A stretch of DNA of 64,000 nucleotides from an uncultured Planctomycetia bacterium (GTDB lineage: Bacteria > Planctomycetota > MHYJ01 > WSZJ01), in contig CAVPNQ010000072.1 in assembly GCA_963706735.1 (NCBI GenBank), forward strand, positions 4,932 to 68,931, read 5' to 3'. The position numbers and the translations under genes are program-made. This document shows, piece by piece, positions 37,675 to 59,374 of this stretch. Within the stretch, counting starts at the first letter, position 1, and each line of letters opens with the position of its first letter. The notes under the pieces were generated by a model that saw only the letters and a program-made list of their open reading frames with translations, was not told the DNA's origin and made no database searches.

Positions 37675-37678
37675 ATCT

Positions 37679-38743: not shown

Positions 38744-38788
38744 TTCCGTTCATCCCCCCCTTACTCTCACTCAGCCGCGGAGGGCCCC

Positions 38789-39694: not shown

Positions 39695-39723
39695 GCGGGG
39701 ACGGCCCACGAGAAGAGGTTGCC

Positions 39724-40701: not shown

Positions 40702-40785
40702 AAGGTTCCCGGTGAGCGGCTTGCGGCTTCCGGGGAGAGGTTCAGGCCTGCGCGAGCAATCTGAGCGCGTTGTAAGCGATCGAGG

Positions 40786-40827
40786 CTGCCCATGCGCTGG
40801 CCCGGACTGCCCATGCGCTGGCCCGGA
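40786..40827. repeat. Exact 21-nt tandem duplication (tgcccatgcgctggcccggac x2)
   Basis: Read directly. Confidence 0.7.
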
Positions 40828-41250
40828 CGCGGGTGCCGTCCTGCGCGACGCGCTTGAGTTCGACGGCGTCGTGGCGCAGAAGCGCCGCGAGGACCTGGGT
40901 CATCATGTCGTCCAGAGCTTCCTTGTGGTCGACGCGGAAATCGGACAGCGTGTGCGGGCAGACCGCAACCCCGCCGAGCAGCCCATCCAGCTATGTCGGC
41001 GTGAGCAGTACCTGGTTTCTCGCCGCCCGAAGAAGCTTCGCCGGCCCTTGCTTCCTCGTGCGCTCCACCGCAGGTCTCGACTCCGCTGATTCATCGAACA
41101 GATTCGCTTCTTTCACGCGCTCTGACAGGGGGGGGGATTTCCGCGGGCGAGGGGAATTGTCCGCAAAGCGGACCTCGTCATCCGCATTTCCTCGATTTCC
41201 CGAGTGGCATCCGATTCGCGACTGTTCCGTCACCCTCTGGAGACCGTGCC

Positions 41251-41805
41251 ATGAAGCTGATTGCGTTCTGCGGACCGTCGGATTCCGGCAAGACCTGGAT
41301 GATCGAGCGCCTGGTGCGGCTCTGGACCTCGCGTGGTCTCAAGGTCGGGGTCGTCAAGCACTGCTCCAAGGGCTACCAGCTGGACCGCGAGGGGAAAGAC
41401 TCGAGCCGCTTCTGGGAAGGAGGGGCCGCGGCCGTCGCGGTCGTCGGGCCCGGCGAGTGGGCGGTCCGCCGTCGCGAACCCGAGGCCGACCCGGTTCGCA
41501 TTGCCGAAGAGGCGTTTCCCGGAGTCGACGTGGCCATCGTGGAAGGATTCCGCGACGTCGCGATCCCGCGCGTCCGGGTCTTCGGGGCGAGCGAGCTGCC
41601 CTCATGCACGGACGCGGACCACGACATCATCGCCGCAGTGTCCCGCACCCCGGGTACGGCCCAGAACATTCCCATCTTCGCGCTGACCGACGCCGACGGG
41701 CTCTCGGACTTTCTCGCACACAGGCTCGGGCTGAATCTCGCCCTCTCCACGGATCCGGAGGCCGCCGTGCTGAGACACGAAAGAGCGGGCGCTCGTCCGG
41801 CTTAG
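41251..41805 (+). CDS. mobB: Molybdopterin-guanine dinucleotide biosynthesis adapter protein MobB
   Basis: P-loop GPSDSGKT, …VVKHC… and size 184 aa are typical for MobB. Confidence 0.8.
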   Translation: MKLIAFCGPSDSGKTWMIERLVRLWTSRGLKVGVVKHCSKGYQLDREGKDSSRFWEGGAAAVAVVGPGEWAVRRREPEADPVRIAEEAFPGVDVAIVEGFRDVAIPRVRVFGASELPSCTDADHDIIAAVSRTPGTAQNIPIFALTDADGLSDFLAHRLGLNLALSTDPEAAVLRHERAGARPA

Positions 41806-43739: not shown

Positions 43740-44504
43740 CTACACACCGCAGTCGCTGCTTTCGTTTTCTTCGGGACCGTCTTCGGGCTCGGCAGCCGGT
43801 TCGGGCGGAATCGCAATCGGTTCCGCGCTGACTTCCCCCGGCGTCACTTCCAGACGGGAAGCATCAGATTGCAAAACAGAGGCCAGAAGCGCGCCCAAGG
43901 CGCGATGCAGGGTGTTAGGGGCCTTTTTCGCGAGAATTTCCCCAAACACTGGGCCCCATCGCCCAATGTGGTCCTTCAAGAACGCCCGCGCGGCCTCCAG
44001 CGTCCGTTCCGCGCCCTCCACTTCTCCACGCTCCAGCGCCACGAGCTGCTTCACCGCGAGAAAGTGCACGAATTCCAGCTCAAGCCAGGCATGGTCAGCC
44101 CGTTCTCCGGTTCCTCCGCGAACCTGCAGCCCGAACGCCCTGTAAAACGCAGTAACGTCCGCCAGGTCCTGGGTCTCCTGGAACGGATGGGCGCTGCCGT
44201 ATCGCGTCTCGTGCGGCGGGAACGTCTCGGAAATCGTGTGGCCGTACGTCGCGAGGTGCATCGACTCCATGCCCCCGTCCGTCAGCCCCTGCAGCACCGC
44301 CTTCACCTCCGCCAGTCTTCCTTTCACGCAGTCGCCAGCCTTCCCCCAGAGTTCCGCCGTGTCGGAATCAGGAAGCTCATTCCGAAGCGCTTCCGCCGTG
44401 CCAGCGCTCGGGTACGCGAAGGCGCGAGCAAGGAACCGGTAATACCCGGCGCGAACGAACGCAAGTTCCGAGTCCATCGTCAGTTCCGGAAGAGTGGCTG
44501 GCAT
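43740..44504 (-). CDS. TorD/NarJ-family redox-enzyme maturation chaperone with extended acidic C-terminus
   Basis: Start at MPATLPEL. …YRFLARAFAYP…LEFVHFLAV… matches the TorD/NarJ delta-subunit pattern. Lies 10 nt downstream of the beta subunit. Confidence 0.75.
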   Translation of the reverse strand: MPATLPELTMDSELAFVRAGYYRFLARAFAYPSAGTAEALRNELPDSDTAELWGKAGDCVKGRLAEVKAVLQGLTDGGMESMHLATYGHTISETFPPHETRYGSAHPFQETQDLADVTAFYRAFGLQVRGGTGERADHAWLELEFVHFLAVKQLVALERGEVEGAERTLEAARAFLKDHIGRWGPVFGEILAKKAPNTLHRALGALLASVLQSDASRLEVTPGEVSAEPIAIPPEPAAEPEDGPEENESSDCGV

Positions 44505-44514
44505 CCGTGTTCCC

Positions 44515-45789
44515 CTAGATGGAGTTGGCGTGCTTGTCGGGCCGGATGTGGAATGGCTCCTCAACTGCCGTCCGGAACAGCTCCTGCCGGTCCTTCCCGA
44601 AGGCGATAATCGTGTCGTTGAAGAGCTCAAATTTCTTCCCGCGGATGGTCGTTTCGAAGCGCTTCTCTCCCGGTTCGATCTCGTAGCTGTAGATGATCCG
44701 CTGGTCTTTGCGGAAGAGCTGGAGGACAGCGAGGAGTTCGCGGTTGGGGATGGTGTAGTTCTCGATCGCGTCGTCGACGCCCGGCCCGAACATCTGCTTC
44801 AGGTACTCGCGAGGAACCCACCGCGGCGGGATGTAGAAACCGTTGGGCTCCGTCCCGAACTGCGGGTAGAGCGGCAGGGCGACTTTTGCCACCTTGACGA
44901 GGTGGTAGAGAGGGCTCTTCTTGTTTTCCGTCCACGACCCGTCCTTCTCGACCTTCACGAGTCCCTGCAGGCGGATCTGGCCGACGCAGCTCGTCATGCA
45001 CCGCGTTTCCATCGGCACGCCGCCGCACTGGGGGTCCTTGCCCTCGATGCGCGGGAAGCAGGCCACGCACTTTTCCGAAGTCCGCGTCGAAGGCCGGTAC
45101 ATCGCCTTCTTGTAAGGGCACGCTTCGACGCACCGGCGGTACCCGCGGCAGCGTTCCTGGTCGATGAGCACGATCCCGTCTTCGGGACGCTTGTAGATCG
45201 CCTTGCGCGGACATGCCGCGAGGCAGCCGGGATAGGTGCAGTGGTTGCAGATGCGCTGGAGGTAGAAGAACCAGGTCTTGTGTTCGGGGAGCGAGGCGCC
45301 GTCCCTGGAGAGGCCGAACGGACCGCCCTCGTAGGGGGTCGCGTTGTCTTCGAAGATGTTCGGGGCGGTCCACTCGGACTCGGTGGGGAGGTACCCGAGG
45401 ACGCGCTGCTGCGAATCGGGATTCAGCGCCTTCTTTGCCGCTTCGAAGATCGTCATGCCCTTGTACTGGCCGTAGACGGCCCTGTCCGACTTCTTGCCCG
45501 CCCAAGCCATTTCCTCGCCGGCGCGGGCATGAGCCTGATCGAGGAGCTGGAGGATTTTCGAATCCCAGTTCTGCGGGTAGCCGCCGTAGGGTTTTGTCTC
45601 GACGTTGTTCCACCACATGAGTTCCTGGCCCTTGGAAAACGTCCAGGTGGACTTGCAGCTCATGGTGCACGTCTGGCACGCGATGCAGCGGTTCGTGTTG
45701 AACACGAACGCAAACTGGTGATCGGGGTGGTGCTCCTCGTACGGGTATTCCATCTGCCGCCCGAGTTGCCAGTTATAGACCTGGGACAT
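44515..45789 (-). CDS. Fe-S beta subunit of a type II DMSO-reductase-family enzyme (NarH/NxrB-like, 424 aa)
   Basis: MSQVYNWQLGRQMEYPYEE…FVFNTNRCIACQTCTMSCKSTW…WWNNVETKPYGGYP is the NarH/NxrB N-terminal signature. Multiple Cys ferredoxin motifs. The 424-aa length matches Nitrospira/anammox-type NxrB rather than the 512-aa NarH. Confidence 0.9.
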   Translation of the reverse strand: MSQVYNWQLGRQMEYPYEEHHPDHQFAFVFNTNRCIACQTCTMSCKSTWTFSKGQELMWWNNVETKPYGGYPQNWDSKILQLLDQAHARAGEEMAWAGKKSDRAVYGQYKGMTIFEAAKKALNPDSQQRVLGYLPTESEWTAPNIFEDNATPYEGGPFGLSRDGASLPEHKTWFFYLQRICNHCTYPGCLAACPRKAIYKRPEDGIVLIDQERCRGYRRCVEACPYKKAMYRPSTRTSEKCVACFPRIEGKDPQCGGVPMETRCMTSCVGQIRLQGLVKVEKDGSWTENKKSPLYHLVKVAKVALPLYPQFGTEPNGFYIPPRWVPREYLKQMFGPGVDDAIENYTIPNRELLAVLQLFRKDQRIIYSYEIEPGEKRFETTIRGKKFELFNDTIIAFGKDRQELFRTAVEEPFHIRPDKHANSI

Positions 45790-45802
45790 GCGTGAAGCCT
45801 CC

Positions 45803-46075
45803 TTAGTTGCCCGCCTGCGGAGACGGGCTCCACTCGCGGAGCACGTCGTCGATCACCCGTTCCACGAACTGTTGACCGTGCTGGGCCCAGACCCTGTGGG
45901 TGCCGGCGTAGAACGGGTCCTTGAAGAGCCGCACGAGGCGCTCCCTGTCGAACCCGTTCAGCAGGAACTCCTCGACGACCGCGCGGGTCATGTCTTCGTC
46001 CGCCTGCGGCCCGGCCGGGATCGCCATACCGACGAACTCCAGCGGGTCGTCCTGTTCGCTTTCTTTTTCCGGCAT
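45803..46075 (-). CDS. Small acidic hypothetical protein (90 aa) encoded between the alpha and beta subunits
   Basis: ORF with normal composition (MPEKESEQDDPLEFVGMAIPAG…FLLNGFDRERLVRLFKDPFY…). Tight 14-nt and 28-nt spacing to its neighbours. Confidence 0.5.
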   Translation of the reverse strand: MPEKESEQDDPLEFVGMAIPAGPQADEDMTRAVVEEFLLNGFDRERLVRLFKDPFYAGTHRVWAQHGQQFVERVIDDVLREWSPSPQAGN

Positions 46076-46103
46076 CGTTTCCTCCTGGTCCCGGGACGGT
46101 CGT

Positions 46104-49100
46104 CTAACCTCTGGTGACCTTGCCCTGCATGTACTTCTTCATGAAGTCGTTCTCGCCGCCTGGCGCGAACCCGCTGGCAGCCGGCGCCCACACGCCCACG
46201 CCGTTCAACCCGCCGTTTTCGGCCTTCGTAATCTTGACCAGCGTCTCCTTCGGCGTTGTGTTTACTGCGTGGTTGTCAGCTTCGCCGCCGAAGAGGAATC
46301 CCATGCGGGCCTTGGTCTTGTGGAAGAGCGAGTCGAGCTGGTGCATCGGCATGAGCCAGCCGCGTGTGACGGACTGCTGCGAGCCGTAACGGAAGCTCGA
46401 CTGGTAGCCGGTTCCCTCGGACTGCGCCCGTCCGTCTTCGCGCGACTCGTGCGCCTTGACCGACTTCTCCGTCGCAATGAAGGGCGCGTGTTTCATCATC
46501 ACGGCGCTATACGGGTAGGCGGCGTTGTACTTCGCCCGCAGCATGAGCCTCCCGACCTTGTAGTGCGGGTCATCCGGTTTCCACCCGATATACGGACGAT
46601 CCGCGGGATTCGCATCGACGTACACGTAGTCCCCGTCCGCGATCCCCATGTCCTTCGCAGCCGCCGGGTTGATGTGAATCTGGTGCTCACCCACCCCCGC
46701 CTGGCGCTTGTCGCGCCGGTACGGGTCGCCGAACTGGTTGTTCCAGATGAACTGCCAGTCCGTGACCTGCCACTGCGAGTGCGTCGAGTGCCGCGACTTC
46801 GGTGTAATGCAGTAGAACTTGAAGCCCGCTTCCCAGAGCGGGTTCTTCGTGTTCTTCACCTCGCTCCAAGGTTTCTTGATGTTGCGAACCTGCCGCTCCT
46901 CGACCCCCATGGCGTCCTCCGGGATGCCATAGGACTCCGGGCGGACCCAGGGGTTCGAACTCACGATCACGTTCGGCAGGTACGGCGTCGCTTCCGGCCC
47001 CTCGCGATGGACGATGAAGTTCTCGCCGTACTCGATGACCTCGTCCTCATCGTTGTACGACTGCAGCCGGCCCGTGGGGGTGTAGAAGGGGAGGTTGTCC
47101 TTGATCTGCTCATAGAACGGAACCCGCGGGTACGTCCGGAACAGGAAGAGCGCCGCCCCGGGTTCGCCGTATTTTCCGTCGTTGATGTCCTTGACCTTGT
47201 AGCCGCGCGTCGTCGTCGAGGCGTCCAGCAGGCGCTGGATATAGACCTCCGTCTTCCCCTCGTGCGTGAACTTCCAGAGATCCGTGAGACGCGGTTCCCC
47301 GATCAGCTCGCCGACGGCTTTCGAGGCATTCGCCAGGATCACCGGGTCGTCCATCGTGTCGTATACCGGCTTGATCCCGCGCCCCCAGATCTGCAGGAAC
47401 GGGTTCGAACACGACCCCGTCACCTCGTACTGCTGGAACTCCATCCAGCAGTTCGCCGCAAACACCAGGTCGCTGTACTCGACGCTCGAAGTCATCTCGA
47501 TGTCCGTCGAACAGATCATCTCGATCTTCGTGTTCGTCTTCATCAACATCTGGTAGGCCCACTTCGCGTTATTGAAGAGATTCACGTTGGTGAACCAGAG
47601 GAACTTGGTCGGCGTGGGCATGTGCGACTTCCCTGTGAAGCACTTGTGTCCCTTGCCGGGCGTCTCGACCAGGAGAGGCTTGTCGTCGTAGTTCCAGTAG
47701 GCCGGCTCTTCATCCTGTGTGAAGGCGTGGGCATGGATGTCTTTGCCGTCTGCGTTCTCGTCCAGGTTCAGGTGCCAGGGATCTTCCGCGACCCAGCCCT
47801 TGAAGCCGGGGCCTGTCCACGTGGAGCCCTGGAACAGCGCGGCCTTGTAGTTGCCGGCCCACGTGTGGGAACCGGCGCCCGGAAGACCGATGTTTCCCGT
47901 CAGCATGAGCGGCAGGTAGCTCGCCCGGTTCGCTTCCGTCGCGTGGAACCAGTGGTTGATTCCTTCACCCTGGTGGATCGCGACCGGCTTGATCGTCGCG
48001 ATGTCGTCCGTCAGCCGGCGGATCAGTTCCTTCGGGGCGCGCGTGATCTCGTGAACTGTGTCGAGGTCGTAGTCCTTCAGGTGGATGTTCTTGTAGAGGT
48101 CGAAAAGCGGACGAACGACGATTTCCTTCCCGTCCACCGTCTTCACCTTGAACGTGCCCTTGAGCGCCGCATCCAGGCCGAGGCTGTCGAAGAGCCCGCC
48201 GACGGCGTCCCGCGTCACCACCTTCGGCCCGTTCGTCTTCGTGTCCCAGACCATGAAGTCGCCGATGCGGTCCCGCTGTTCCTTCGTCATGCCGTGGATC
48301 TGGAAGGATGCCCCCGCGGACAGGTCCGGCGCCGCGTAGCCCTTGATCACGTCCTTCGCCTGCAGTCGCTTGAGGTTGTCCTCGCGCACGAGCAGGGGGA
48401 AATCCGTGAAGCGCTTCACGAAGTCCGCGTCGTATTTGTTCTCGTCCATCATGAGCTTCGTGATGCCGAGGAGGAGCGCCGTGTCGCTGTTCGGGCGGAT
48501 CGGGATCCAGTAGTCGGCCTTGGACGCCGGCGGCGAGTACTCCGGCGTGATGACGACGATTTTGGCGCCGCGCTCCATGCACTCCGTGAAGAAGTGATTG
48601 TCGGCGCGCTTGTTCTCGATGAGGTTCTTGCCCATCTGGATATGGAGCTTGGAGTACCGGAAATCGTTCAGGTCGCAGTCCGAGGCCTGAAGTCCGTGTA
48701 CGAACGGGTGGCCGGGGGCCTGGTCGCCGTGCCAGGTGTAGTTCGACCAGATGCGCGAGCCCTTCGCATCATGCTCCCCGACGCCGCGGATCTTGGCATC
48801 GGCGAGGGCGAGGCCCTGGCCGAAGCGGTACATGCCGTATTTGCCCATGACGCCGAGGAGGCCCATGCCGCCGCGGACCTTGCAGACGCGGGCGCCGGAA
48901 TTCTCGTGGTAGAGGAGCATTTCCTCGGGGTAGCCCTCGTCGACCAGGCGCTTGCGCCCCTGCTCCCCCGAGTACTTCTTCATGATGTGGACGACGCCCT
49001 TCGCCAGGTACTTGAACGCGTCGTCCCAGGCGATCTTCACGAGCTCGTCCGTCCCGCGCGAGTCGAACTTGTACTTCTTGTGGTTGTCGGGGGTGAGCTC

Positions 49101-49544
49101 GGGGAAGCCGTCGTCGGCCCACTGCTTCCACATTTTGCGGATCATGGGGTAGCGGAGGCGGTACGGGCCGTACATGCGGCGCTGCATCGTGAACCCGTTG
49201 GAGCAGCCACGCGGGTTCCAGTTGACCGTGGCCTTGTTGCCGTAGAGGTCGCCGACGCGCCCGCTGTCGTAGTTCTGCTCGCTGCGGAGCACGACGCCAT
49301 TGCGGACGTACGCTCTCATGCGGCACGAGTGCGTGCAGTTCGGGGAGCACACCCAGGCGAAGCTCGAGTCGTACCGATACTGTTCGCGGTACACCTCTTC
49401 CCAGTCGCGCGCCGGGTAGGCCGCCAGCGGGTCGACGTCGGGAAACGGTTCGAAAGCCCCGAGCCTCAGGCCGCCCGAGGCCAGCCACGCGGCGCTTCCC
49501 GCAATTCCTGCGGACTTCAGGAAGTCGCGACGGTTAATGGCCAT
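46104..49544 (-). CDS. Molybdopterin (bis-MGD) catalytic alpha subunit of a periplasmic type II DMSO-reductase-family enzyme (NxrA/NarG-like, 1146 aa from the Tat-signal Met)
   Basis: Twin-arginine signal MAINRRDFLKSAGIAGSAAWLASG. NarG/NxrA-like N-terminus …WEEVYREQYRYDSSFAWVCSPNCTHSCRMRAYVRNGVV… with a C-x3-C-x3-C FS0-type motif. Size matches Nitrospira/Kuenenia NxrA (~1146 aa). Confidence 0.9.
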   Translation of the reverse strand: MAINRRDFLKSAGIAGSAAWLASGGLRLGAFEPFPDVDPLAAYPARDWEEVYREQYRYDSSFAWVCSPNCTHSCRMRAYVRNGVVLRSEQNYDSGRVGDLYGNKATVNWNPRGCSNGFTMQRRMYGPYRLRYPMIRKMWKQWADDGFPELTPDNHKKYKFDSRGTDELVKIAWDDAFKYLAKGVVHIMKKYSGEQGRKRLVDEGYPEEMLLYHENSGARVCKVRGGMGLLGVMGKYGMYRFGQGLALADAKIRGVGEHDAKGSRIWSNYTWHGDQAPGHPFVHGLQASDCDLNDFRYSKLHIQMGKNLIENKRADNHFFTECMERGAKIVVITPEYSPPASKADYWIPIRPNSDTALLLGITKLMMDENKYDADFVKRFTDFPLLVREDNLKRLQAKDVIKGYAAPDLSAGASFQIHGMTKEQRDRIGDFMVWDTKTNGPKVVTRDAVGGLFDSLGLDAALKGTFKVKTVDGKEIVVRPLFDLYKNIHLKDYDLDTVHEITRAPKELIRRLTDDIATIKPVAIHQGEGINHWFHATEANRASYLPLMLTGNIGLPGAGSHTWAGNYKAALFQGSTWTGPGFKGWVAEDPWHLNLDENADGKDIHAHAFTQDEEPAYWNYDDKPLLVETPGKGHKCFTGKSHMPTPTKFLWFTNVNLFNNAKWAYQMLMKTNTKIEMICSTDIEMTSSVEYSDLVFAANCWMEFQQYEVTGSCSNPFLQIWGRGIKPVYDTMDDPVILANASKAVGELIGEPRLTDLWKFTHEGKTEVYIQRLLDASTTTRGYKVKDINDGKYGEPGAALFLFRTYPRVPFYEQIKDNLPFYTPTGRLQSYNDEDEVIEYGENFIVHREGPEATPYLPNVIVSSNPWVRPESYGIPEDAMGVEERQVRNIKKPWSEVKNTKNPLWEAGFKFYCITPKSRHSTHSQWQVTDWQFIWNNQFGDPYRRDKRQAGVGEHQIHINPAAAKDMGIADGDYVYVDANPADRPYIGWKPDDPHYKVGRLMLRAKYNAAYPYSAVMMKHAPFIATEKSVKAHESREDGRAQSEGTGYQSSFRYGSQQSVTRGWLMPMHQLDSLFHKTKARMGFLFGGEADNHAVNTTPKETLVKITKAENGGLNGVGVWAPAASGFAPGGENDFMKKYMQGKVTRG

Positions 49545-50517
49545 GAATGCCCTCCTGAACCAGGTTGGAAGAGCGGGTCGCCACGGTCGGCGCGAACCGC
49601 GTGCGGAAGACGTAGGAGTCGAGGCACTGGCGGCACGCGCCATCGGCCGTATTCCAGGTCGGGGAATCCGCCTGGACCATGGCGAGGGTGGTGGCGGGAA
49701 GAGCGGCGGGGTTCTCGTGCCACTCGAAAGTGGGGAAGCTGCAGAGCGGGCAGAGGGATCCCGGGCCGCGCGGGCTCTCGTCCTGCCGGATCCCCGAGAA
49801 ACGAAGGAGTTTCCTGGGATCGAGGGCCAGTTCGATGAGCTGCGGCCAGGTCGCCTCGGGTGTTTCCCAGAGCCGGGTCAGGATGCGGTCGCGAGTGGCA
49901 GGGGGAAAGCCAGGGTAATTCCGCATGACCATCGTGCCCCATTCCTCGAGCGTCGCCGCGCCGAGCTTTCCCGAACGGGCGATGGCGCCGGCGGCGACGA
50001 GGTTCCAGAGGAGGCGGAGACGGGCCCGGACGAGATTCTCTTCGGCTGGCCGAGAGGCGATCCGGCCGAGCGCGCGGTAGACGAAGGCGGGCCGGAGCAT
50101 GTCCTCGACGTGGCGGAGCTCGTGGCGCAGGAATCCGGCGAGCGCGACTGGATCGTCGAACCGCTGGACGCGGATGCGAATGCGAACGTGAGGCTTGCCT
50201 CCGTCGCGCACGAGAAGGTCTGCCTCCTCGTCCGTCGCCGCCGCGCCGCGGTCGAGAATCAGCTCGTCAATCTGCGGTGCAATCGACGGGTAATCGGCGA
50301 CGGCGGTCTCGATCGGCCGGGCCAGGCCAAGGTGCCGGAAGAAAACGGCGTGGGCGTCGCGGAAGCGCGCCTCGCGCTCGGTGCCCTGGAGCGAGTAGAT
50401 CGGGTCGGACACGGCGTGCAGGTCTCGGGACGACGAAGCGTCCCCGGCGGCTTCGCGGCGAAGCACCTCGCGCGCGACCGCTTCTTCGAGCAACTCGGGG
50501 GCGAATCGAAGTTCCAC
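49537..50517 (-). CDS. Hypothetical protein (327 aa) with C-terminal CxxC…CxxC zinc-ribbon, encoded between the gamma and alpha subunits
   Basis: …CPLCSFPTFEWHE…ACRQCLDSY…. Stop abuts the alpha start. Confidence 0.55.
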
Positions 50518-50529
50518 GTTTGATCTCCC

Positions 50530-52185
50530 TTATTTCAGGATGAGCCGATACCAGGTTGTGACGGACTTCTGGCCGGCACGGTCGCCCGCGGCGCCGTCCC
50601 ATACGGCGAAGGCCATCGGGATTTCCGTCCCCGCCTTCAAGGCGATGCAGCACGGGTCCGGCGGAGCGAAGGATCGGCCCATCTGCACCGTCCAGAGCCC
50701 TTCCTTCCAGGCGCCTTTGCCGGTGACCGACTGCTTGTCCGCCGCGAGGCTCGTGAGCGTGCCGAAGCCCGCCGCGACCGCGTCCTCGACGGGGGACTTG
50801 CGGTCGGGGTTGGAGAACGGATTGCCCGCGGCGCGCCCCGACTGGTACGCGGGGTCGTGGTTCGGCATCGCCGAAGGGTTGTTCCCCTTGTTCTCGTTCG
50901 TCCTGTCGCCCTTCTCGAACGGGTACATCTCCACCGACATCCCGGGGTGAATCCCCTCGACGTCCTGCCACTTCGCGAGGTCGATCTGCCAGTCCGCTTT
51001 CCACTGCCACAGGTTTACCGGCATCTTGGCCGAGCCCATCGTGACCGGCGTGTCGATCCCTTCGAGCGCAAACATCAGGGCGACGGCATCGCGGAAGTCC
51101 TCGGCGCGGAGCGGCGCGTGATTGTCGGCGCCGTCGAGCCAGGAGAGCTGGAACGCCACGGCGCTTCCGTCGTGCGCGGCCCGGACTTTCAGGAGGCGCG
51201 GCGCGGCGATGCGGCTGAAGAGCAGCTGGAGCGGCACCTCGACGGCCGGAATCGCGTCCCATGCGGGATCGGTCGGGTCCTTGGGAAGAGCCGCGACCTT
51301 CGTGGCGGGGAGCTGGCTTCCCGACGGAAGTGCGGCGGCGAAGTGCTTCGGCGCGTCGCCCGAGAGGCTCATGACGTAGTGAACGAGGCCCCAGCGTTCC
51401 TTGTCGGACATCTGGTCGGGGCCGTAAGCGGGCATCGGCGTGCCGGAGAGACCCGTGGCAAAGCGGAGGTAGACGTCCTTGGGGGTCGAGCCGCCGCGGA
51501 AGATACCCTGCGTGAAATCGTTCGGGCGGATCGGCTGGTCCGCGTCGTCCTTGAGATCGGCGGCCGAGGGGCCGTCAGCCCGGCCGGTTTCGCCGTGGCA
51601 CTTGACGCAGCTCATCTTGATGTACATGTCCTTGCCGATGGCGCGGGACTTGTCGTCATCGGCCGGCTCAGCGGGGACGGCGAGCGACTTGCCCTGGCCG
51701 CGCTCTTTGAAGTAGTTGTAGGGCGCGTCCATGTCCGGGTCCTGGAACTGGCTGAGATCCTTGATGTAGGCGATGAGCGCCTTGCGGTCGGCTTCGGGGA
51801 AGTGTCGCCAGGCCGGCATCGCTGTGCCCGGCATGCCGTTTACGAGAACGGCCATGATGTCTTCGTCGGTGGGGAGAGCCCCGCTCTCGGTTGAGCGGAT
51901 CTTGAACTTGCCTTTGGAGAAGTCGCGTGGGCGGGGCCAGAGAAGGTAGGCCGCCGTGCCGTCGCCGAGGCCCTTGAGCCCGTGGCAGACGGCGCAATTG
52001 GCCTCGAAGAGGAATTTGCCGGTGGCGTTCGCGTCGCCGCCCGGGTCGCCGCCGGCCCCATCACCACCGAGCGCCGACGGGACCGTTTTTTGCGGATCCC
52101 GAGGCTGGCAGGCGGACAGAGTGACGATGCAGAGAGCGCAGGCGGCGAAGGCCGCCAGTTTCCAGGCGTGAGTTCGACAGGGCAT
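50530..52185 (-). CDS. Lipoprotein diheme cytochrome c fused to an EB_dh-type heme-b domain (candidate gamma subunit of the oxidoreductase)
   Basis: Lipoprotein signal MPCRTHAWKLAAFAACALCIVTLSAC. Two CxxCH motifs (CAVCHG, CVKCHG). C-terminal ~250 aa resembles the ethylbenzene-dehydrogenase gamma / DOMON-like heme-b domain (…AFAVWDGAAGDRAGQKSVTTWYRL…). Confidence 0.75.
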   Translation of the reverse strand: MPCRTHAWKLAAFAACALCIVTLSACQPRDPQKTVPSALGGDGAGGDPGGDANATGKFLFEANCAVCHGLKGLGDGTAAYLLWPRPRDFSKGKFKIRSTESGALPTDEDIMAVLVNGMPGTAMPAWRHFPEADRKALIAYIKDLSQFQDPDMDAPYNYFKERGQGKSLAVPAEPADDDKSRAIGKDMYIKMSCVKCHGETGRADGPSAADLKDDADQPIRPNDFTQGIFRGGSTPKDVYLRFATGLSGTPMPAYGPDQMSDKERWGLVHYVMSLSGDAPKHFAAALPSGSQLPATKVAALPKDPTDPAWDAIPAVEVPLQLLFSRIAAPRLLKVRAAHDGSAVAFQLSWLDGADNHAPLRAEDFRDAVALMFALEGIDTPVTMGSAKMPVNLWQWKADWQIDLAKWQDVEGIHPGMSVEMYPFEKGDRTNENKGNNPSAMPNHDPAYQSGRAAGNPFSNPDRKSPVEDAVAAGFGTLTSLAADKQSVTGKGAWKEGLWTVQMGRSFAPPDPCCIALKAGTEIPMAFAVWDGAAGDRAGQKSVTTWYRLILK

Positions 52186-52263: not shown

Positions 52264-52333
52264 TGAAATCATCGAATTCGAATAACGGACAGGGAAGTCC
52301 GTGGCAATTCGCGCTGGAGGTGCGCGAATTTAC

Positions 52334-52346
52334 TTAATGTCATTAA
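52334..52346. promoter_or_regulatory. AT-rich perfect palindrome TTAATG-T-CATTAA, flanked by GCGAATTCGC palindromes, in the divergent control region
   Basis: Read directly. The only strongly AT-rich patch in the region. Lies between the two divergent operons. Confidence 0.4.
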
Positions 52347-52668
52347 CTAAAGCGCTGTGCGAATTCGCGGCGCTTCGCGGAAATAACCAGCCTGTCCCCG
52401 ACCCCAACGCAGCCTTTCAAAAAAAAATAGCCCGGCGCCCCCGACCGGCGGGATCGGAAGCGCAGGGCCGGGCGGGAGGTCCCGCCCACGACTTTCCCCG
52501 GCCCGGAGGCCAGGGAGGGGTACCGAGGGCAATCCCGACGCCAACGCAAATCCAGTTCCCCGGCTCCTACGCTTGAAGGCGCTCTCAATACTGGGAAATT
52601 TTCCGCGCCCACTGCGGACAGCTCCATGCCGTTCTTCTCGAATCCACCTTTCTGTCGCGTGTGACCCG

Positions 52669-52733: not shown

Positions 52734-53501
52734 ATGCCACTCAAGTTCCTCGCTGTATCCCTCGCACTGCTCGCGGCCGCCGGATGCGGCGCCCCGGCTT
52801 CCCAAGGCGGTCCTGCTTCGCCGCAAGGTTCGAAAGGCGGCGACTTCCTGTGCGATGGAAGTGCCGGGGGGAGTGCGATCAAGGGCAAGATCACCTTCGA
52901 GGGTCCCGTGCCCGAGCCCAGGAAACTGGTTGTGGACAGCGACGCCCTCTGCGCTTCCCTCCACAAGGACGGACTGCTGGCCGAGGACATCAAGGTGAAG
53001 GACGGCGCGCTCGCGAACGTCTTCCTGTGGGTCAAGAAGGGCGTGACGGGGAGCTATCCCGCGCCCGCGGAAGCAAAGATCCTCACCCAGAAGGCCTGCC
53101 GTTACGAACCGCACGTCCTCGGCGTGCAGGTCGGGCAGCCGCTCGCGATCCACAACGAAGACGAGACGATGCACAACGTGCATTCGCTTCCGAAGCTGAA
53201 CGAAGAATTCAACTTTGCGCAGACGAAGAAGGGCGACGTCGCGACGAAGAAGTTCAGCTCGGCGGAGACGATGGTGAAGTTCAAGTGCGACGCGCACGGC
53301 TGGATGAGCGCCTGGGTCGGGGTGGTGAAGCATCCGTTTTATGCGGTGAGCGCCGAGGACGGGACGTTCGAGATCAAGGGGTTGCCGGCGGGCGAGTACG
53401 TGCTGGGCGCGTGGCACGAGAAGTTCAGGGCGCAGGAACTCACGCTCAAGGTCGGGGACAAGGACACGCAGACCGCGAACTTCACGTTCAAGGCCGAGTA
53501 G
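52734..53501 (+). CDS. Cupredoxin-like (amicyanin-type C-x2-H-x2-M) copper lipoprotein, copy 1
   Basis: Lipobox LAAAGCG. Ligand set H(NVH)…38 aa…CDAHGWM. C-terminal beta-sandwich extension. 50-55% identity to copy 2. Confidence 0.7.
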   Translation: MPLKFLAVSLALLAAAGCGAPASQGGPASPQGSKGGDFLCDGSAGGSAIKGKITFEGPVPEPRKLVVDSDALCASLHKDGLLAEDIKVKDGALANVFLWVKKGVTGSYPAPAEAKILTQKACRYEPHVLGVQVGQPLAIHNEDETMHNVHSLPKLNEEFNFAQTKKGDVATKKFSSAETMVKFKCDAHGWMSAWVGVVKHPFYAVSAEDGTFEIKGLPAGEYVLGAWHEKFRAQELTLKVGDKDTQTANFTFKAE

Positions 53502-53555: not shown

Positions 53556-53852
53556 ATGTCGGGACACGCGCAGTCGGCGGCGCCTGCAGCGCACGGAGCG
53601 TCCAGCTACAAGACCTACTGGTTTGCGTGGCTGCTGCTCCTCATCCTGACGGTGCTCATGGTGCAGATTCACAACAAGGCCCTGTTGCTCACCGGCATCG
53701 GGATCAAGTCCACGATCATCTGCCTGTGGTTCATGCACCTGAAGCACGAGTCGAAGCTGCTTCTGTTCAGCGTGGCGCTCGGATTCGGGTTCGCCGTGTT
53801 CCTGTTCTTCCTGATCCAATTTGACGTGAAGGTCCTGACGGGGATCGCGTAG
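53556..53852 (+). CDS. Prokaryotic cytochrome c oxidase subunit IV family protein, copy 1 (98 aa)
   Basis: …YKTYWFAWLLLLILTV…FMHLKHE…. Two TM helices. Paralog of the gene at 59093. Confidence 0.7.
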   Translation: MSGHAQSAAPAAHGASSYKTYWFAWLLLLILTVLMVQIHNKALLLTGIGIKSTIICLWFMHLKHESKLLLFSVALGFGFAVFLFFLIQFDVKVLTGIA

Positions 53853-54205: not shown

Positions 54206-55009
54206 ATGCTTAAGACACCTCTTCTCGTGGCCTCGATTGTCCTGAGCGCTCTGCTCGTGGCGGGCTGCGGCGACAGCAAGAAGCCCGATGCTAACGGCAA
54301 TACCGGTGCGGGTGGCGGCGGTGGCGAAGGCGGCGGCGGCGGCGGCGCGGTGAAGACGGCCGACATGGCCAATGGCGCGGTCGTCAAGGGCGTCATCAAG
54401 TTCGACGGCACTCCTCCGACCGAGAAGGCCCTCGGCATCGACGGCGACGACTTCTGCAAGGGCCAGCACCCGGAAGGCCTCAAGACCGAGTACTACAAGG
54501 TCAAGGACGGCAAGGTCGCCAACTGCCTCGTCTACGTGAAGGATGGCCTCTCCGGCAAGTACGCGCCGGTCAACCCCAGCCCGGTGATCGACCAGAAGGG
54601 CTGCCAGTACCTCCCGCACGTCATCGGCGTCGTTGCGGGCCAGGACGTCATCATCAAGAACAGTGACTCGATCGCGCACAACATCCATGCGCTTCCCAAG
54701 AAGAGCCAGGAGTTCAACTTCGCGCAGACGAAGGCCGGGGAAGAGACGAAGAAGTCGTTCTCGTCGGCGGAAGTGCCTGTGAAAGTGAAGTGCGACATTC
54801 ACGGCTGGATGGGCTGCGTGGTCGGGGTGTTCAACCACCCGTTCTTCGCGGTGACGGGGGAAGACGGCTCGTTTGAGATCAAGGGTCTTCCGGCCGGGAA
54901 GTACAAGCTCGAGGTCTACCACGAGAAGTTCGGGACGCAGACGGTGGATGTCGAGGTGAAGGAGAAGGAGACGAAGTCCGTCGATTTCCCGGCCCTGAAG
55001 AGCGAATAA
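54206..55009 (+). CDS. Cupredoxin-like copper lipoprotein, copy 2
   Basis: Lipobox LVAGCG. Gly-rich linker. H(NIH)…CDIHGWM ligand set. Confidence 0.7.
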   Translation: MLKTPLLVASIVLSALLVAGCGDSKKPDANGNTGAGGGGGEGGGGGGAVKTADMANGAVVKGVIKFDGTPPTEKALGIDGDDFCKGQHPEGLKTEYYKVKDGKVANCLVYVKDGLSGKYAPVNPSPVIDQKGCQYLPHVIGVVAGQDVIIKNSDSIAHNIHALPKKSQEFNFAQTKAGEETKKSFSSAEVPVKVKCDIHGWMGCVVGVFNHPFFAVTGEDGSFEIKGLPAGKYKLEVYHEKFGTQTVDVEVKEKETKSVDFPALKSE

Positions 55010-55022: not shown

Positions 55023-55859
55023 ATGCACCGACGCAACAGGGGAGCGGTGACGCCGGTATTGCTGGCGTCGTTCATGCTGGTTTTCACCGTGATCACGGTG
55101 TGGATGTGGTTTGCCCGGGAGTGGCGGCCCGCCCAGATGAGCGTGCACTCCAAGGGCGTGGACAAGATGATCACGTACATCGTCGGCGCCGCGGGGTTCA
55201 TCTTCATTGTCGGGCACCTGGTGCTGTCGAAGTTCATCATGAACCGTTCGAAGCCGGACGGGCAGCCCTGGAAGCCGATGTCCCACGGGGCCGAGACGTT
55301 CTTCACGGTGGCGCCGGTGATCCTCATGGTGCTGGTCTCGGAAATCGGGACGATCGTGATCGGCGCGCCGGTGTGGAACGAGGTGTACACGCACGAGGCG
55401 GGCGACGTTGAGGTTGAGATCACGGGGATGCAGTACGAATGGGTGGCCCGCTATGCCGGGGCAGACGGCAAGTGGGGGAAGCGGGTGGTCGAGAAATTCG
55501 ACTCCGCGGACAATCCGCTCGCGCTGGACCCGAAGGACAAGGACGGGAAGGACGACATCGTGAGCCGCGGCGTGGTGGTCCTGCCCGCGGGCAAGCCGGT
55601 CTGGTTCAACATCCGCTCGTGGGACGTGCTGCACAGCTTCAACATCCCCGAGTTCCGCACGAAGCAGGATGCGGTGCCGGGCATCTACACGCACACGCGG
55701 GTCACGCCGCTCAAGCCGACCGAGAACGGGAAACCGATCGAGGTTGCCTGCGCGGAGATCTGCAACTTCGGCCACTACAAGATGAAGGCGAAGGTGATCG
55801 TGAAGACGCCCGAGGATTTCGCGAAGTGGCTGGAAACGACAACGAAGTTCGGCGACTAA
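55023..55859 (+). CDS. coxB: Heme-copper oxidase subunit II (CuA; no fused cytochrome c domain)
   Basis: Two N-terminal TM helices. …WDVLHSFNIPEFRTKQDAVPG…. CuA motif ACAEICNFGHYKM. Confidence 0.9.
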   Translation: MHRRNRGAVTPVLLASFMLVFTVITVWMWFAREWRPAQMSVHSKGVDKMITYIVGAAGFIFIVGHLVLSKFIMNRSKPDGQPWKPMSHGAETFFTVAPVILMVLVSEIGTIVIGAPVWNEVYTHEAGDVEVEITGMQYEWVARYAGADGKWGKRVVEKFDSADNPLALDPKDKDGKDDIVSRGVVVLPAGKPVWFNIRSWDVLHSFNIPEFRTKQDAVPGIYTHTRVTPLKPTENGKPIEVACAEICNFGHYKMKAKVIVKTPEDFAKWLETTTKFGD

Positions 55860-56008
55860 GCCGGGCCGCGGAAGAGTCTTCTGGAGTCTATGCCCGTCTC
55901 GGCCCGGCTTATCCTGAGCGAGCCCGTAGGGCGAGTCGAAGGATGCTGTTGAAGTAAGCGGGTGGCAAGGTAAGAGACTTACCCTTGTTCGCTTAGGGAG
56001 AGATCATC

Positions 56009-57769
56009 TTGGCGATCACGCATACGCACGGCTCGGACGCGTCGCACACGCACGACGACCATGGCCACGGACATGGCGACGGGCATGGGCACGACCACCA
56101 CACGCCCGGGTTCATCGGGAAGTACATCTTCAGCTTCGACCACAAGACGATCGGCATCCAGTACCTGCTGCTGGCGATGTTCATGAGCCTGATCGGCGTG
56201 GGACTGTCGTTCTGGTTCCGCGCGCAGCTGGCGTGGCCGGGCAAGGAGATGATGACTCCCGAGCAGTACGTCATGGCCGTCACGATGCACGGCACGATCA
56301 TGATCTTCTTCGTCGTGTCGGCGGCGCTCTCCAGCGGCCTGGGTAACCTGGCGATCCCGCTCCAGATCGGCGCGCGCGACATGGCGTTCCCGCTGCTGAA
56401 CATGCTGTCGTTCTGGACGAACGTCCCCGGTGCGATCCTGATGATCGCGTCGTTCTTCGTCGAAGGCGGCGCTTCCGCCGGCGGCTGGACGGCCTACCCG
56501 CCGCTCTCCGCGCTGCGCAACGCCGGCGCCGGGACCCACCTGGGCACGACGCTCTGGCTCCTCGGCATCGCGATGTTCATCGTGTCCTTCACCCTGGGCG
56601 GCCTGAACTACACGGCCACGATCCTGAACCTGCGCGCCCGCGGCATGAACCTCATGAAGATGCCGCTGTCCGTCTGGACCTGGTTCATCGCGACGCTGCT
56701 CGGCCTGCTCAGCTTCCCGGCCCTCACCGCCGGGGCGATCATGCTCCTCCTCGACCGCCACGGCGGGACGAGCTTCTTCCTCCCGAGCGGCCTGATCGTG
56801 TCCGGCACCCCGATGGCCAACGTCGGCGGAACCCCCCTCCTGTTCCAGCACCTGTTCTGGTTCCTCGGCCACCCCGAGGTGTACGTCCTCGTGCTGCCGG
56901 CCATCGGCATCGCCTTCGAGGTCATCCCCGCGTTCGGCCGCCGACCCGTCCACGGCTACAAGTGGAGCGTCTACGGGCTCATCATCATCGCCTTCCTCGG
57001 CATGATCGTGTGGGGCCACCACATGTTCGTGTCCGGCATGAACCCGTTCCTCGGCAAATACTTCTCCATCTCCACCCTGCTCATCACCGCGCCGTTCGCC
57101 ATCCTCGGCGTGAACCTCGTCGCCTCCCTCTGGAAGGCGCGCATCCGCTTCACGACCCCCATGCTCTTCGCCCTCGCCCTCGTCTCCGCCGTCGGCACCG
57201 GCGGCATCGGCGGCCTGTTCCTCGCCACCTCCGCCGCCGACCTCCACTTCCACGACACTTACTTCGTCGTCGGCCACTTCCATCTCATGATCGGCGTCGT
57301 CACCCTGACCGGGACCTTCGCCGGGATCTACTACTGGTTCCCCAAGATGTTCGGGCGCACCATGAACGACACCCTCGGCAAGCTCCACTTCTGGCCCACC
57401 ATGATCGGTACCTTCATGGTCTTCACCATCCAGCACTTCCAGGGCCTCGGAGGCATGACACGCCGCTACTTCGAGTACGGCCACGAGGTCTTCAAGCCCG
57501 TCGTCGCCCTCAACCACATGGTCACGATGTTCGCCTTCCTCGCAGGCGCAGGCCAGATCGTGTTCTTCGTGAACTTCTTCTGGAGCGCCTTCCGCGGACC
57601 CAAGGCTTCGCAGAATCCGTGGGAAGCGACCGGCATGGAGTGGACGACGGCGTCGCCCCCGGGGCACGGCAACTGGCAGGGCCCGATTCCTCCCGCGCCC
57701 GGGATTCCGTACCAGTACGCCACCGGCGCTGACGGGAACGGTTTCCGCATGCAGACCGAGAAGGATTAG
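56009..57769 (+). CDS. ctaD: Heme-copper oxidase subunit I with His-rich N-terminal extension
   Basis: TTG start with AGGGAGAG ribosome-binding site. 12 TM core with canonical His ligands (…HHMF…, …GHFHLMIG…, …WAHHMF-type). N-terminus THTHGSDASHTHDDHGHGHGDGHGHDHH. Confidence 0.95.
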   Translation: MAITHTHGSDASHTHDDHGHGHGDGHGHDHHTPGFIGKYIFSFDHKTIGIQYLLLAMFMSLIGVGLSFWFRAQLAWPGKEMMTPEQYVMAVTMHGTIMIFFVVSAALSSGLGNLAIPLQIGARDMAFPLLNMLSFWTNVPGAILMIASFFVEGGASAGGWTAYPPLSALRNAGAGTHLGTTLWLLGIAMFIVSFTLGGLNYTATILNLRARGMNLMKMPLSVWTWFIATLLGLLSFPALTAGAIMLLLDRHGGTSFFLPSGLIVSGTPMANVGGTPLLFQHLFWFLGHPEVYVLVLPAIGIAFEVIPAFGRRPVHGYKWSVYGLIIIAFLGMIVWGHHMFVSGMNPFLGKYFSISTLLITAPFAILGVNLVASLWKARIRFTTPMLFALALVSAVGTGGIGGLFLATSAADLHFHDTYFVVGHFHLMIGVVTLTGTFAGIYYWFPKMFGRTMNDTLGKLHFWPTMIGTFMVFTIQHFQGLGGMTRRYFEYGHEVFKPVVALNHMVTMFAFLAGAGQIVFFVNFFWSAFRGPKASQNPWEATGMEWTTASPPGHGNWQGPIPPAPGIPYQYATGADGNGFRMQTEKD

Positions 57770-57771
57770 CG

Positions 57772-58323
57772 ATGGCCCAGGCCTGGAAAGAGGACGGTTG
57801 GGAACGCGCGGTCGCCGCCGAGCGGCGCATCGACACGTTCCAGACCCTCACTTTCTTCATGGTCGGCGGCGCCATCATGCTGTTCACCTGCTTCACCGCT
57901 TCCTACCTCGTCCGGCGCGAAAGCGCCGACTGGGTCAAGCTCGCCCTTCCCCCCATCCTCTGGGTGAATACCGCCGTGATCGTCCTGAGCAGCCTGACGC
58001 TCGAGGCCGCACGGCTCGTCAAGCCCGCCGCGTCGCGCCGCTGGGTCGGCGTCACGATCGGGCTCGGCGTGGCGTTCGTCGCCGGGCAGGTCCTGGCGTG
58101 GCGGGAGCTGGCCCTGAAGGGCGTCTTCGCCACGACGGATCCGCACGCGTCATTCTTCTACATGTTGACGGGGGTCCACGCGGTGCACATCGCCGCGGGA
58201 ATCGCCGTGCTCGCGTACGCGTTCAGGCGCGCCGGAAGGGCCCCCCTGGGGCTCTGCGCGGCGTGGTGGCATGTCGTGGGGGCCGCGTGGGTCTGGGTGG
58301 CGGTCCTGATCTCGGTCCTCTAG
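57772..58323 (+). CDS. Cytochrome oxidase subunit III-like protein (short, 183 aa)
   Basis: …FYMLTGVHAVHIAAG…WWHVVGAAWVWV… matches COX3-family motifs. Confidence 0.7.
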   Translation: MAQAWKEDGWERAVAAERRIDTFQTLTFFMVGGAIMLFTCFTASYLVRRESADWVKLALPPILWVNTAVIVLSSLTLEAARLVKPAASRRWVGVTIGLGVAFVAGQVLAWRELALKGVFATTDPHASFFYMLTGVHAVHIAAGIAVLAYAFRRAGRAPLGLCAAWWHVVGAAWVWVAVLISVL

Positions 58324-58462
58324 AAAGTGACAGGCCGGGGGAGATCGAGTGTGCCCCTGGAGAAGAGATCCTTCGACTCGCTTCGCTCGCTCAGGATAAG
58401 CCGGGCCTGAGTGGGGCTTGTGGAAGTCGAAGGGCGGTTCCCGGCCCGGCTTAGGAGCGGCG

Positions 58463-59080
58463 ATGAGCACGACGGCAGTGGCGGAACATCATCACGATGC
58501 GGCGGACGAATCCGAACCCGGGTTTTACGGGACGTCGTGGCAGAAGCTGATGATGTGGTGGTTCATCATCGGCGACGCGATCCTGTTCGGGTCGTTCCTG
58601 GCCGCCTACGGGTTCGCGCGGATGTCGGTCACCAACTGGCCGGATCCCGCGAAGGTCTTCAGCATGAACTTCATCACCGTGATGACCTTCGTGCTGATCA
58701 CGTCGAGCGCCACGATGGCGACCGCGGTCGGCGCTTCCCGCGCCGGCAATCACAAGATGGCGTGCAACTTCACGATCCTCACCGCGATCGGCGGCCTGGT
58801 GTTCCTCGGGATGCAGGTCGTGGAGTGGTCGCACATGATCCACGACGGCGCCCGCCTGAACACGAACCCCTGGGGCGCGCCCGCCTTCTCGGCGTTCTTC
58901 TTCACCATCACCGGCTTCCACGGCTCGCACGTCCTCTCGGGCGTCGTCATCCTGCTCATCACGGCCATCAACGCCCTTCGCGGAAAATCCGGACCCGAAG
59001 GCGTCGAGCTCGCCGGGCTATACTGGCACTTCGTCGACCTCGTCTGGGTCTTCGTCTTCGGCACCTTTTACCTGCTCTAG
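58463..59080 (+). CDS. ctaE: Cytochrome c oxidase subunit III
   Basis: AGGAG ribosome-binding site. …FFFTITGFHGSHVLSG…LYWHFVDLVWVFVF…. Confidence 0.85.
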   Translation: MSTTAVAEHHHDAADESEPGFYGTSWQKLMMWWFIIGDAILFGSFLAAYGFARMSVTNWPDPAKVFSMNFITVMTFVLITSSATMATAVGASRAGNHKMACNFTILTAIGGLVFLGMQVVEWSHMIHDGARLNTNPWGAPAFSAFFFTITGFHGSHVLSGVVILLITAINALRGKSGPEGVELAGLYWHFVDLVWVFVFGTFYLL

Positions 59081-59092
59081 GAACCGCCACCC

Positions 59093-59374
59093 ATGAGCGA
59101 ACAGCACGCTGAGCACGCTTCACACGGATACAAGGGCTACTGGATCGCCTGGTTGCTCCTGCTGATCCTGACCGTGGTCATGATCAGCATCCACAACAAG
59201 ACCGTCCTCCTCGCCGGGATCGCGGTGAAGTCGATCGTGATCTGCATGTTCTTCATGCACCTGAAGTTCGAGCGCAAGATGCTCGTCTACAGCGTCGCGC
59301 TGGGATTCATTGCGGTGTTCGCGCTGTTCTTCTTCATCCAGTACGACGCGCAGCTCGGGAAGATCGGGCTTTAA
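59093..59374 (+). CDS. Prokaryotic cytochrome c oxidase subunit IV family protein, copy 2 (93 aa)
   Basis: …YKGYWIAWLLLLILTV…FMHLKFE…. About 60% identical to copy 1. Confidence 0.7.
   Translation: MSEQHAEHASHGYKGYWIAWLLLLILTVVMISIHNKTVLLAGIAVKSIVICMFFMHLKFERKMLVYSVALGFIAVFALFFFIQYDAQLGKIGL

Follow-up and report, generated by a model that had tools for sequence, protein, structure and literature searches.

A gene on the minus strand (52185..50530) of a 64,000-nucleotide stretch of contig CAVPNQ010000072.1, from an uncultured Planctomycetia bacterium (hereafter, the window), encodes a protein of 551 amino acids (aa) in which a diheme cytochrome c is fused to an EB_dh heme-b domain, as judged from the open reading frame (ORF) and from Pfam and Protein Data Bank (PDB) matches. 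We consider it quite probable that this protein is the gamma subunit, the point of electron exit or entry, of a periplasmic molybdoenzyme of the nitrite oxidoreductase (NXR) type, an NXR/Nar-like member of the dimethyl sulfoxide (DMSO) reductase family, type II, and that it is tethered by lipid and serves the enzyme as a diheme-c wire. The original prediction for this DNA had read the same protein as a gamma subunit composed of a lipoprotein signal (LSAC), two c-type heme motifs (CAVCH and CVKCH) and an EB_dh-like C-terminal domain, and these elements were all recovered here.

Both c-heme motifs can be read directly from the DNA: CAVCH, aa 64-68 (51982-51996), lies in cytochrome c domain 1 (aa 54-150; 51736..52026), which aligns to the Kuenenia protein Kustc0457, and CVKCH, aa 193-197 (51595-51609), lies in cytochrome c domain 2 (aa 177-274; 51364..51657). 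Pfam Cytochrom_C matched the protein in two stretches (E=3e-22) and Cytochrome_CBB3 matched it as well (E=7.5e-22), while the C-terminal domain (aa 306-541; 50563..51270) matched EB_dh (PF09459) over profile positions 1-236 of 236, scoring 95.2 bits where the cut-off is 33.3 (E=8.1e-27). These matches lie far beyond chance, and the three families named beforehand for a profile search were thereby all found. A sequence search of the PDB matched aa 54-274 to 6h5l_B, the diheme cytochrome Kustc0457 of Kuenenia (E=4e-53), aa 332-549 to 7b04_C, the Kuenenia NxrC (E=1e-29), and the same C-terminal region to 2ivf_C, EbdC (E=1e-12).

According to the published structure (PMC8387239), Met155 and Lys305 are the heme-b ligands of Kuenenia stuttgartiensis NxrC (KsNxrC), an arrangement shared with EBDH. 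In HMMER alignments, Met383 (codon 51037-51039) and Lys540 (codon 50566-50568) of the window protein correspond to these residues and to Met108 and Lys201 of EbdC, and both are invariant in 27 of 27 homologues of 37-75% identity; the Met/Lys pair that the original prediction had advised looking for is therefore in place. In the alignment of these 27 homologues, C64, C67, H68, C193, C196 and H197 are also invariant, as are Met123 and Met251, which stand in MP motifs and are the expected distal ligands. In every respect, the sequence agrees with a protein that holds two c hemes of His/Met ligation and one b heme of Met/Lys ligation, and it is from these residues that we infer heme occupancy.

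An AlphaFold2 model built on the same homologues (mean predicted local distance difference test score, pLDDT, 80; predicted template modelling score, pTM, 0.76) comprises a signal helix at aa 7-25, disorder over aa 26-49 and two confidently predicted domains, the diheme one spanning aa 50-285 and the beta-rich EB_dh one spanning aa 291-551, the latter with a single floppy loop (aa 406-456). When this model was searched with Foldseek, the top chains were again 6h5l_B, 7b04_C and 2ivf_C, the best being 6h5l_B (TM 0.89, rmsd 1.6 Å), so that the predicted fold agrees with the sequence matches and the C-terminal domain does have the EB_dh fold that had been proposed for it. The link between cytochrome domain 2 and the EB_dh domain (aa 270-300) is short and confidently modelled, with a pLDDT of ~90; this favours, in the model, a diheme module that acts as a fixed wire rather than as a swinging arm.

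The gene leads an operon on the minus strand (52185..43740) with the order gamma–X327–alpha–small–beta–delta, in which X327 is an accessory gene of 327 codons and small is a short ORF, both described below. The alpha subunit (46104..49544; 1146 aa; Pfam Molybdopterin) carries a Tat signal, RRDFLK, and is an NxrA-type molybdopterin subunit that matches Kuenenia NxrA (7b04_B) over its full length with 1774 bits, as compared with 196 bits for the perchlorate reductase subunit PcrA, 166 bits for EbdA and 124 bits for NarG. The beta subunit (44515..45789; 424 aa; Pfam Fer4_11) is an NxrB-type four-cluster Fe-S subunit with a full-length match of 616 bits to Kuenenia NxrB (7b04_A), and the delta subunit (43740..44504; 254 aa from an internal Met) is a TorD/NarJ-type chaperone (Pfam Nitrate_red_del; TIGR03482 DMSO_red_II_cha). 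Judged by these sequence scores, the enzyme is specifically of the periplasmic NXR type of Kuenenia and Nitrospira and not a generic type II enzyme; the comparison first drawn, with Ebd, Ser, Ddh and Nar only, missed this closer affiliation. Within the 64-kb window, tblastn with each domain found no second EB_dh or diheme gene, and among the called genes no other has a CxxCH motif. Since the fusion is the sole EB_dh and the sole CxxCH gene here and lies inside an alpha/beta/delta operon, the gamma-subunit label that had been given to it is reasonable.

The same arrangement recurs widely. All of the top 120 cluster representatives among the homologues (36-75% identity, with one truncated fragment among them) contain PF09459 together with both cytochrome c families; among the names given to them at source are 'ethylbenzene dehydrogenase-related protein', 'c-type cytochrome' and 'DMSO reductase family type II enzyme heme b subunit'. 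When one genome per species was scanned, at least 565 relatives were returned; full-length matches were seen in at least 80 species genomes, the best 80 of the scan, from about 10 phyla, with Planctomycetota, Methylomirabilota, Verrucomicrobiota, Acidobacteriota, Binatia, Omnitrophota, Marinimicrobia and Nitrospinaceae among their sources. When the window proteins were compared by tblastn with 86 fetched loci (L001 and so on), an alpha gene was found beside the fusion and on the same strand in 64, and two further, truncated contigs have beta and/or delta; the 64 loci span Planctomycetota, Verrucomicrobiota, Methylomirabilota, Acidobacteriota, Binatia, Omnitrophota and Marinimicrobia. The commonest gene order is gamma-alpha-small-beta-delta-X327, a second recurring order is X327-alpha-small-beta-delta-gamma, and a third, gamma-X327-alpha-small-beta-delta, is that of the window and its closest relatives, L001, L007 and L008.

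The heme-c/heme-b design is accordingly the usual one for a large and already sequenced group of enzymes, and the protein is an ordinary member of that group rather than a new type of protein. Proteins with heme-c and heme-b domains were described as alt_NxrC in Nitrospina in 2013 (PMC3578206) and in Nitrospira in 2019 (PMC6606698), and NXR-like clusters with a co-localised nxrC have been reported, with no mention of c hemes, in metagenome-assembled genomes (MAGs) of non-anammox Planctomycetota and Verrucomicrobiota (bioRxiv 10.1101/2020.05.19.103440; PMC10732223). The novelty that the original prediction implied for the fusion was therefore overstated, since such fusions are the rule throughout a very widespread clade; its clade-specific lipobox anchor and its place at the head of the operon are modest variations on a known design. 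We found no statement in the literature that this large clade has the fusion, encoded in the operon, as its standard and apparently sole gamma subunit.

Comparison with characterised systems shows what the fusion adds. Like NXR-C of Kuenenia stuttgartiensis (Kustd1704; 7B04 chain C), the window protein has the EB_dh fold (~31% identity over 218 aa), the Met/Lys heme-b ligands, close full-length alpha and beta homologues at its side and a Sec-type signal (PMC8387239); the Kuenenia subunit, however, is a soluble, heme-b-only protein of 322 aa that requires a separate redox partner, whereas the window protein has an N-terminal diheme cytochrome c module and a lipobox. EbdC, SerC, DdhC and ClrC likewise share the EB_dh domain, the Met/Lys ligation and the alpha-beta-gamma-delta gene set, and the best NCBIfam families of the operon are those of this group (TIGR03477, TIGR03478, TIGR03479 and TIGR03482); in contrast to the fusion, they are soluble, have a single heme b and depend on free cytochrome c, the window operon scores under every curated NCBIfam cut-off, and the substrate class differs. 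The alt_NxrC proteins of Nitrospina gracilis and Nitrospira moscoviensis, which have been proposed to pass electrons onward from NXR, have the same heme-c and heme-b domain content by the definition given for them (PMC3578206). Unlike the window gene, they are usually unlinked from nxrAB and coexist with heme-b-only NxrC copies, whereas the window fusion is the only gamma candidate in 64 kb and leads its operon. They are also anchored by transmembrane helices or predicted to be soluble, with no lipobox; alt_nxrC_2 of N. moscoviensis, a highly transcribed diheme cytochrome c, has a signal peptide and one transmembrane helix (PMC6606698), and the window protein lacks the transmembrane-helix anchor of this protein and of N. 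gracilis alt_NxrC1.

The N-terminal module is most like Kustc0457 (6H5L chain B), the partner of Kustc0458, a nitric oxide (NO)-forming, HAO-like nitrite reductase (PMC8042395): the two are 43-45% identical, both consist of two tandem class-I cytochrome c folds, and both CxxCH motifs and both Met ligands align. Unlike the fused module, Kustc0457 is a stand-alone protein from a very large stand-alone diheme family, and it nests among the fused diheme domains at 35-49% identity. A Rosetta-stone link between NxrC and Kustc0457 was considered and is weakened by the size of this family: a search with Kustc0457 gave 5811 matches at E<=1e-10, the top 120 of which are all unfused and come from many taxa, so that the module appears generic. 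There is at most a faint suggestion here that the NXR-C heme of anammox bacteria has its long-sought partners among diheme cytochromes of the Kustc0457 family. A diheme c module that is fixed to a complex and replaces a diffusible cytochrome c is also seen in QcrC, the 'cyt cc' of actinobacterial CIII2CIV2 supercomplexes, and two QcrC chains (7rh6_O and 7qhm_C) were among the Foldseek matches of our model. The nitrate reductase of Thermus has a built-in diheme cytochrome as well, the diheme NarC. Unlike the window protein, the QcrC and NarC modules sit on different complexes and have no EB_dh domain, and the likeness is only that of the generic cytochrome c fold.

The N-terminus of the protein was examined with respect to membrane tethering. 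A lipoprotein-type signal peptide (aa 1-26; 52108..52185) can be read from the sequence by the lipobox rule and from the AlphaFold2 helix at aa 7-25; it has Arg4 and Lys9 in the n-region, followed by a hydrophobic helix and the lipobox LSAC at aa 23-26 (52108-52119), with Cys26 as its last residue. LSAC fits both the PROSITE-style rule that we applied (a basic n-region, a hydrophobic region free of charged residues, and cleavage at [AGS]-C with the Cys at position 15-40) and the narrower pattern [LVI][ASTVI][GAS]C with a positive n-region and Cys at 15-35. Between Cys26 and the first heme domain lies a flexible tether rich in Gly, Pro and Asp (aa 27-53; 52027..52107), which is of low complexity, varies in length in the alignment and has a pLDDT below 50 at aa 26-49. 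Besides the window protein, 14 of its 15 closest homologues (46-75% identity) satisfy the lipobox rule, so the Cys is conserved among near relatives, a point on which the original prediction had made itself depend. The protein ends ...TTWYRLILK, with no hydrophobic segment at its C-terminus, and its sole hydrophobic stretch is the lipoprotein signal. From this sequence evidence, the gamma protein is probably lipid-tethered via Cys26.

Several observations weigh against the reading of this gene as a lipid-tethered gamma subunit. Its lipidation, heme content and complex formation are all predictions from sequence; TIGR03477 (type II gamma subunit), although its best NCBIfam family, scores 115.2 bits against a curated cut-off of 169.85, which marks a divergent member; and the adjacency of the operon to oxidase genes, described below, occurs in only 4 of the loci examined. 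With regard to the anchor, just 21 of the 120 top homologues satisfy the lipobox rule; ~100 of them, including most of those below ~45% identity, have no lipobox, which means that the family can do without the anchor. Cys26 is followed by Gln, at a position that differs between relatives, so inner- versus outer-membrane sorting is not predictable. To our knowledge, sorting rules for lipoproteins in Planctomycetes have not been established.

The distant relatives have ordinary signal peptides or N-terminal hydrophobic anchors in place of the lipobox, and this would fit a gamma subunit that is not lipidated at all, with a signal cut by signal peptidase I or left uncleaved as an anchor, and hence a soluble or helix-anchored periplasmic enzyme. 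The related NXR-like clusters of Planctomycetota and Verrucomicrobiota MAGs have also been read as soluble (bioRxiv 10.1101/2020.05.19.103440), and two more Cys, C16 and C19, lie within the hydrophobic region of the signal. Against an unlipidated subunit stand the fit of LSAC to the lipobox rule with Cys at position 26, the retention of the equivalent Cys in the closest homologues down to ~46% identity while surrounding residues vary, the disordered Gly/Pro tether after the Cys, which is typical of lipoproteins, and the same lipobox-plus-Gly-tether design in both neighbouring cupredoxin-like proteins. We therefore regard an unlipidated subunit as unlikely; the pattern across homologues points instead to a lipid anchor that is a conserved trait of the clade of the window protein and not of the family. 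As a separate observation, two homologues labelled Bdellovibrionota and Deltaproteobacteria (P0101 and P0102) have no lipobox and end in a C-terminal GGGC, a hydrophobic stretch and an Arg-rich tail; this extension resembles a sorting or anchoring signal and would be a third way of tethering.

A second group of observations bears on whether the fusion is a subunit at all. In 20 of the 86 loci there is no NXR gene nearby, and 16 of these 20 are from Nitrospinaceae, whose homologous fusions (31-35% identity over aa ~36-550, with the same domain order) stand alone, unlinked to nxrAB. Nitrospina and Nitrospira also have a heme-b-only NxrC (PMC3578206, PMC6606698), and the diheme alt_NxrC of Nitrospira, alt_nxrC_2, is transcribed 2.5- to 4-fold less than nxrAB (PMC6606698); in some lineages, the fusion may thus be a separate carrier. 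If this held for the window, where our view of the genome spans 64 kb, the fusion would be a tethered, alt_NxrC-like carrier in transient contact with the enzyme, and the true heme-b gamma subunit would be encoded elsewhere. We judge this very improbable, as the fusion adjoins alpha, beta and delta in the same orientation in the 64 syntenic loci from many phyla, no second EB_dh gene is present in these 64 clusters or in the window, and in ligands and fold the EB_dh domain matches the crystallised NxrC.

Taking the protein to be the gamma subunit, we propose the following course of events. The protein would leave the cytoplasm through the Sec pathway; signal peptidase II would most likely cleave it at Cys26, where it would be lipidated, and it would hang from the membrane on a disordered tether of ~27 residues, gaining two covalent His/Met c hemes and one Met/Lys b heme in the periplasm. 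Its EB_dh domain would dock on the Tat-exported alpha-beta dimer, on NxrB as in 7B04, and electrons would pass from Mo-bisMGD through FS0-FS4 to heme b (Met383/Lys540), on to the two c hemes and finally to a one-electron periplasmic partner, or along the same path in reverse. In such an arrangement, the fused diheme module would replace the soluble cytochrome c that subunits of the EbdC, SerC and NxrC type meet by diffusion, and the gamma subunit would most likely be a built-in, high-potential wire from NxrB to periplasmic carriers.

Candidate partners are encoded next to the operon and divergently transcribed from it. A lipoprotein with an AAGC lipobox (52734..53501, plus strand; 255 aa in the public call) and a second one with a VAGC lipobox and a poly-Gly tether (54206..55009, plus strand) are paralogous, with a Gly-rich tether, a C-terminal CarboxypepD_reg domain and a cupredoxin-like H...C-x2-H-x2-M motif (H...CxxHxxM) of the kind typical of type-1 copper sites; the second aligns weakly (E=0.07) to the type-1 blue copper protein 5fc9_A on its HNI and CxxH motifs. 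They are embedded in the gene cluster of an aa3-type heme-copper oxidase (55023..59374, plus strand; Pfam COX2, COX1, two COX3 and COX4), and a COX4_pro-like ORF (Pfam) lies at 53556-53852 on the same strand. COX2 has a CuA site, CAEICNFGHYKM, and no fused cytochrome c. The two lipoproteins and the CuA subunit are the only nearby candidate carriers in the window, and we infer that they are the likely electron partners of gamma. The adjacency of NXR and oxidase genes is found again in L007, L008 and the more distant L005 and not in most other loci, and homologues of the CarboxypepD_reg/cupredoxin-like proteins occur near the cluster in L023, L025, L035, L051, L065 and L076.

These neighbours bear on the direction in which the enzyme works. 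The sequence evidence leaves nitrite oxidation to O2 at a little under an even chance; nitrate reduction fed by complex III via c-type or copper carriers we would put at a similar level, and activity on another oxyanion is possible with only a small probability. In the nitrate-reducing case, the enzyme would be the respiratory nitrate reductase of a facultative anaerobe, and the diheme module would be the entry port for electrons from complex III or ACIII via cupredoxin or cytochrome c. Cultured organisms with an enzyme of the clade, Thermogutta terrifontis (PMC5673643, PMC10732223) and Limisphaera (PMC13608581), are reported to reduce nitrate, both of which are likened here by enzyme clade and not by the gamma fusion, and NXRs are reversible (PMC8387239). 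The regulators in the window are of the hypoxia type (see below), and an FNT nitrite/formate channel lies near the operon. In the Verrucomicrobia locus L004, an Fnr/Crp-family regulator (7115-7834; cNMP_binding and HTH_Crp_2) stands immediately upstream of the fusion, which hints at anaerobic induction of the homologous enzyme there. On the other side, among characterised alpha and beta subunits the nearest belong to a nitrite-oxidising enzyme, and the aa3-type O2 reductase and the two cupredoxin-like lipoproteins are divergently adjacent to the operon, an adjacency that is kept in L005, L007 and L008.

The fullest form of the nitrite-oxidising alternative, in which a complete nitrite-to-O2 chain on the membrane surface is made up of the tethered gamma subunit, both cupredoxin lipoproteins and the aa3 oxidase, is a rather doubtful proposal. 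If it is true, a high-GC, non-anammox Planctomycetia lineage would be an unrecognised aerobic nitrite oxidiser, and the locus would show how electrons reach the respiratory chain from periplasmic NXRs that have no membrane subunit. Almost all nitrate on Earth is the product of NXR. The onward electron route from the NxrC heme in periplasmic NXRs is an open question (PMC8387239). A very widespread and uncharacterised NXR-like branch, found in Planctomycetota, Verrucomicrobiota, Acidobacteriota, Methylomirabilota and other phyla, has a cytochrome c partner built in; the window locus offers an electron path concrete enough to be tested and lends itself well to expression or structural studies. 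Public databases already contain hundreds of its relatives, and descriptions of the heme-c/heme-b design, as alt_NxrC, go back to 2013.

The regulatory and stress island beside the operon (33830-43436) contains a sigma54 response regulator, genes for three tandem-USP proteins and, directly after delta, a GAF-PAS histidine kinase, together with the FNT channel (35343-36191), a protoglobin-coupled histidine kinase (36463-37674) and MobB (41251-41805); its composition suggests that the operon is under O2, NO or redox control. The remainder of the window consists of housekeeping genes.

Two smaller genes of the operon deserve mention. X327 (49534..50517, minus strand), the conserved accessory gene of 327 aa, has no signal peptide and no match in Pfam, NCBIfam or the PDB; its product bears a C-terminal CPLC...CRQC pair, and homologues of 25-86% identity occur in most related NXR-like clusters at variable positions. 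Possibly it corresponds to the 'putative zinc finger' protein mentioned for the conserved nxr cluster (PMC3578206), or else it may act in maturation. Between alpha and beta lies a small acidic ORF of 90 aa (45803..46075, minus strand), which likewise has no match in Pfam, NCBIfam or the PDB and has counterparts at the same position in most loci, for example of 92 aa in L001 and 85 aa in L005. In L005, an extra gene for a 101-aa ferredoxin-like (Fer4) protein (1998-2303) stands directly 5' of alpha, with no counterpart in the window.

The start of the gamma gene was placed at the ATG at 52185 (the TAA stop is at 50530-50532), and not at the upstream in-frame ATG at 52272, because the starts of close homologues, a Shine-Dalgarno sequence (GAGGAGG, 7 nt 5' of the ATG) and a public gene call agree; the 580-aa reading from 52272 was ruled out, as homologues begin at the position that matches 52185. 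The public call, on an independent assembly, gives the identical 551 aa, and the exact protein can already be found in NCBI, ENA and Logan. In the intergenic region upstream (52273-52369), several direct and inverted repeats of a GCGAATTCGC-like palindromic motif lie 90-180 nt from the gamma start and could be a candidate operator. A scan of this region for sigma-70 promoters found none. A sigma-54 promoter was not adopted, as the 52 matches obtained compare with 49 expected by chance; two of the matches fall inside the intergenic region, with 2 mismatches apiece. Finally, four contigs that carry a cluster of the Planctomycete/Verrucomicrobia type (L014, L016, L021 and L033) are labelled Bifidobacteriaceae, Akkermansia muciniphila or Methanothrix, labels that are probably due to mis-binning or mislabelling.

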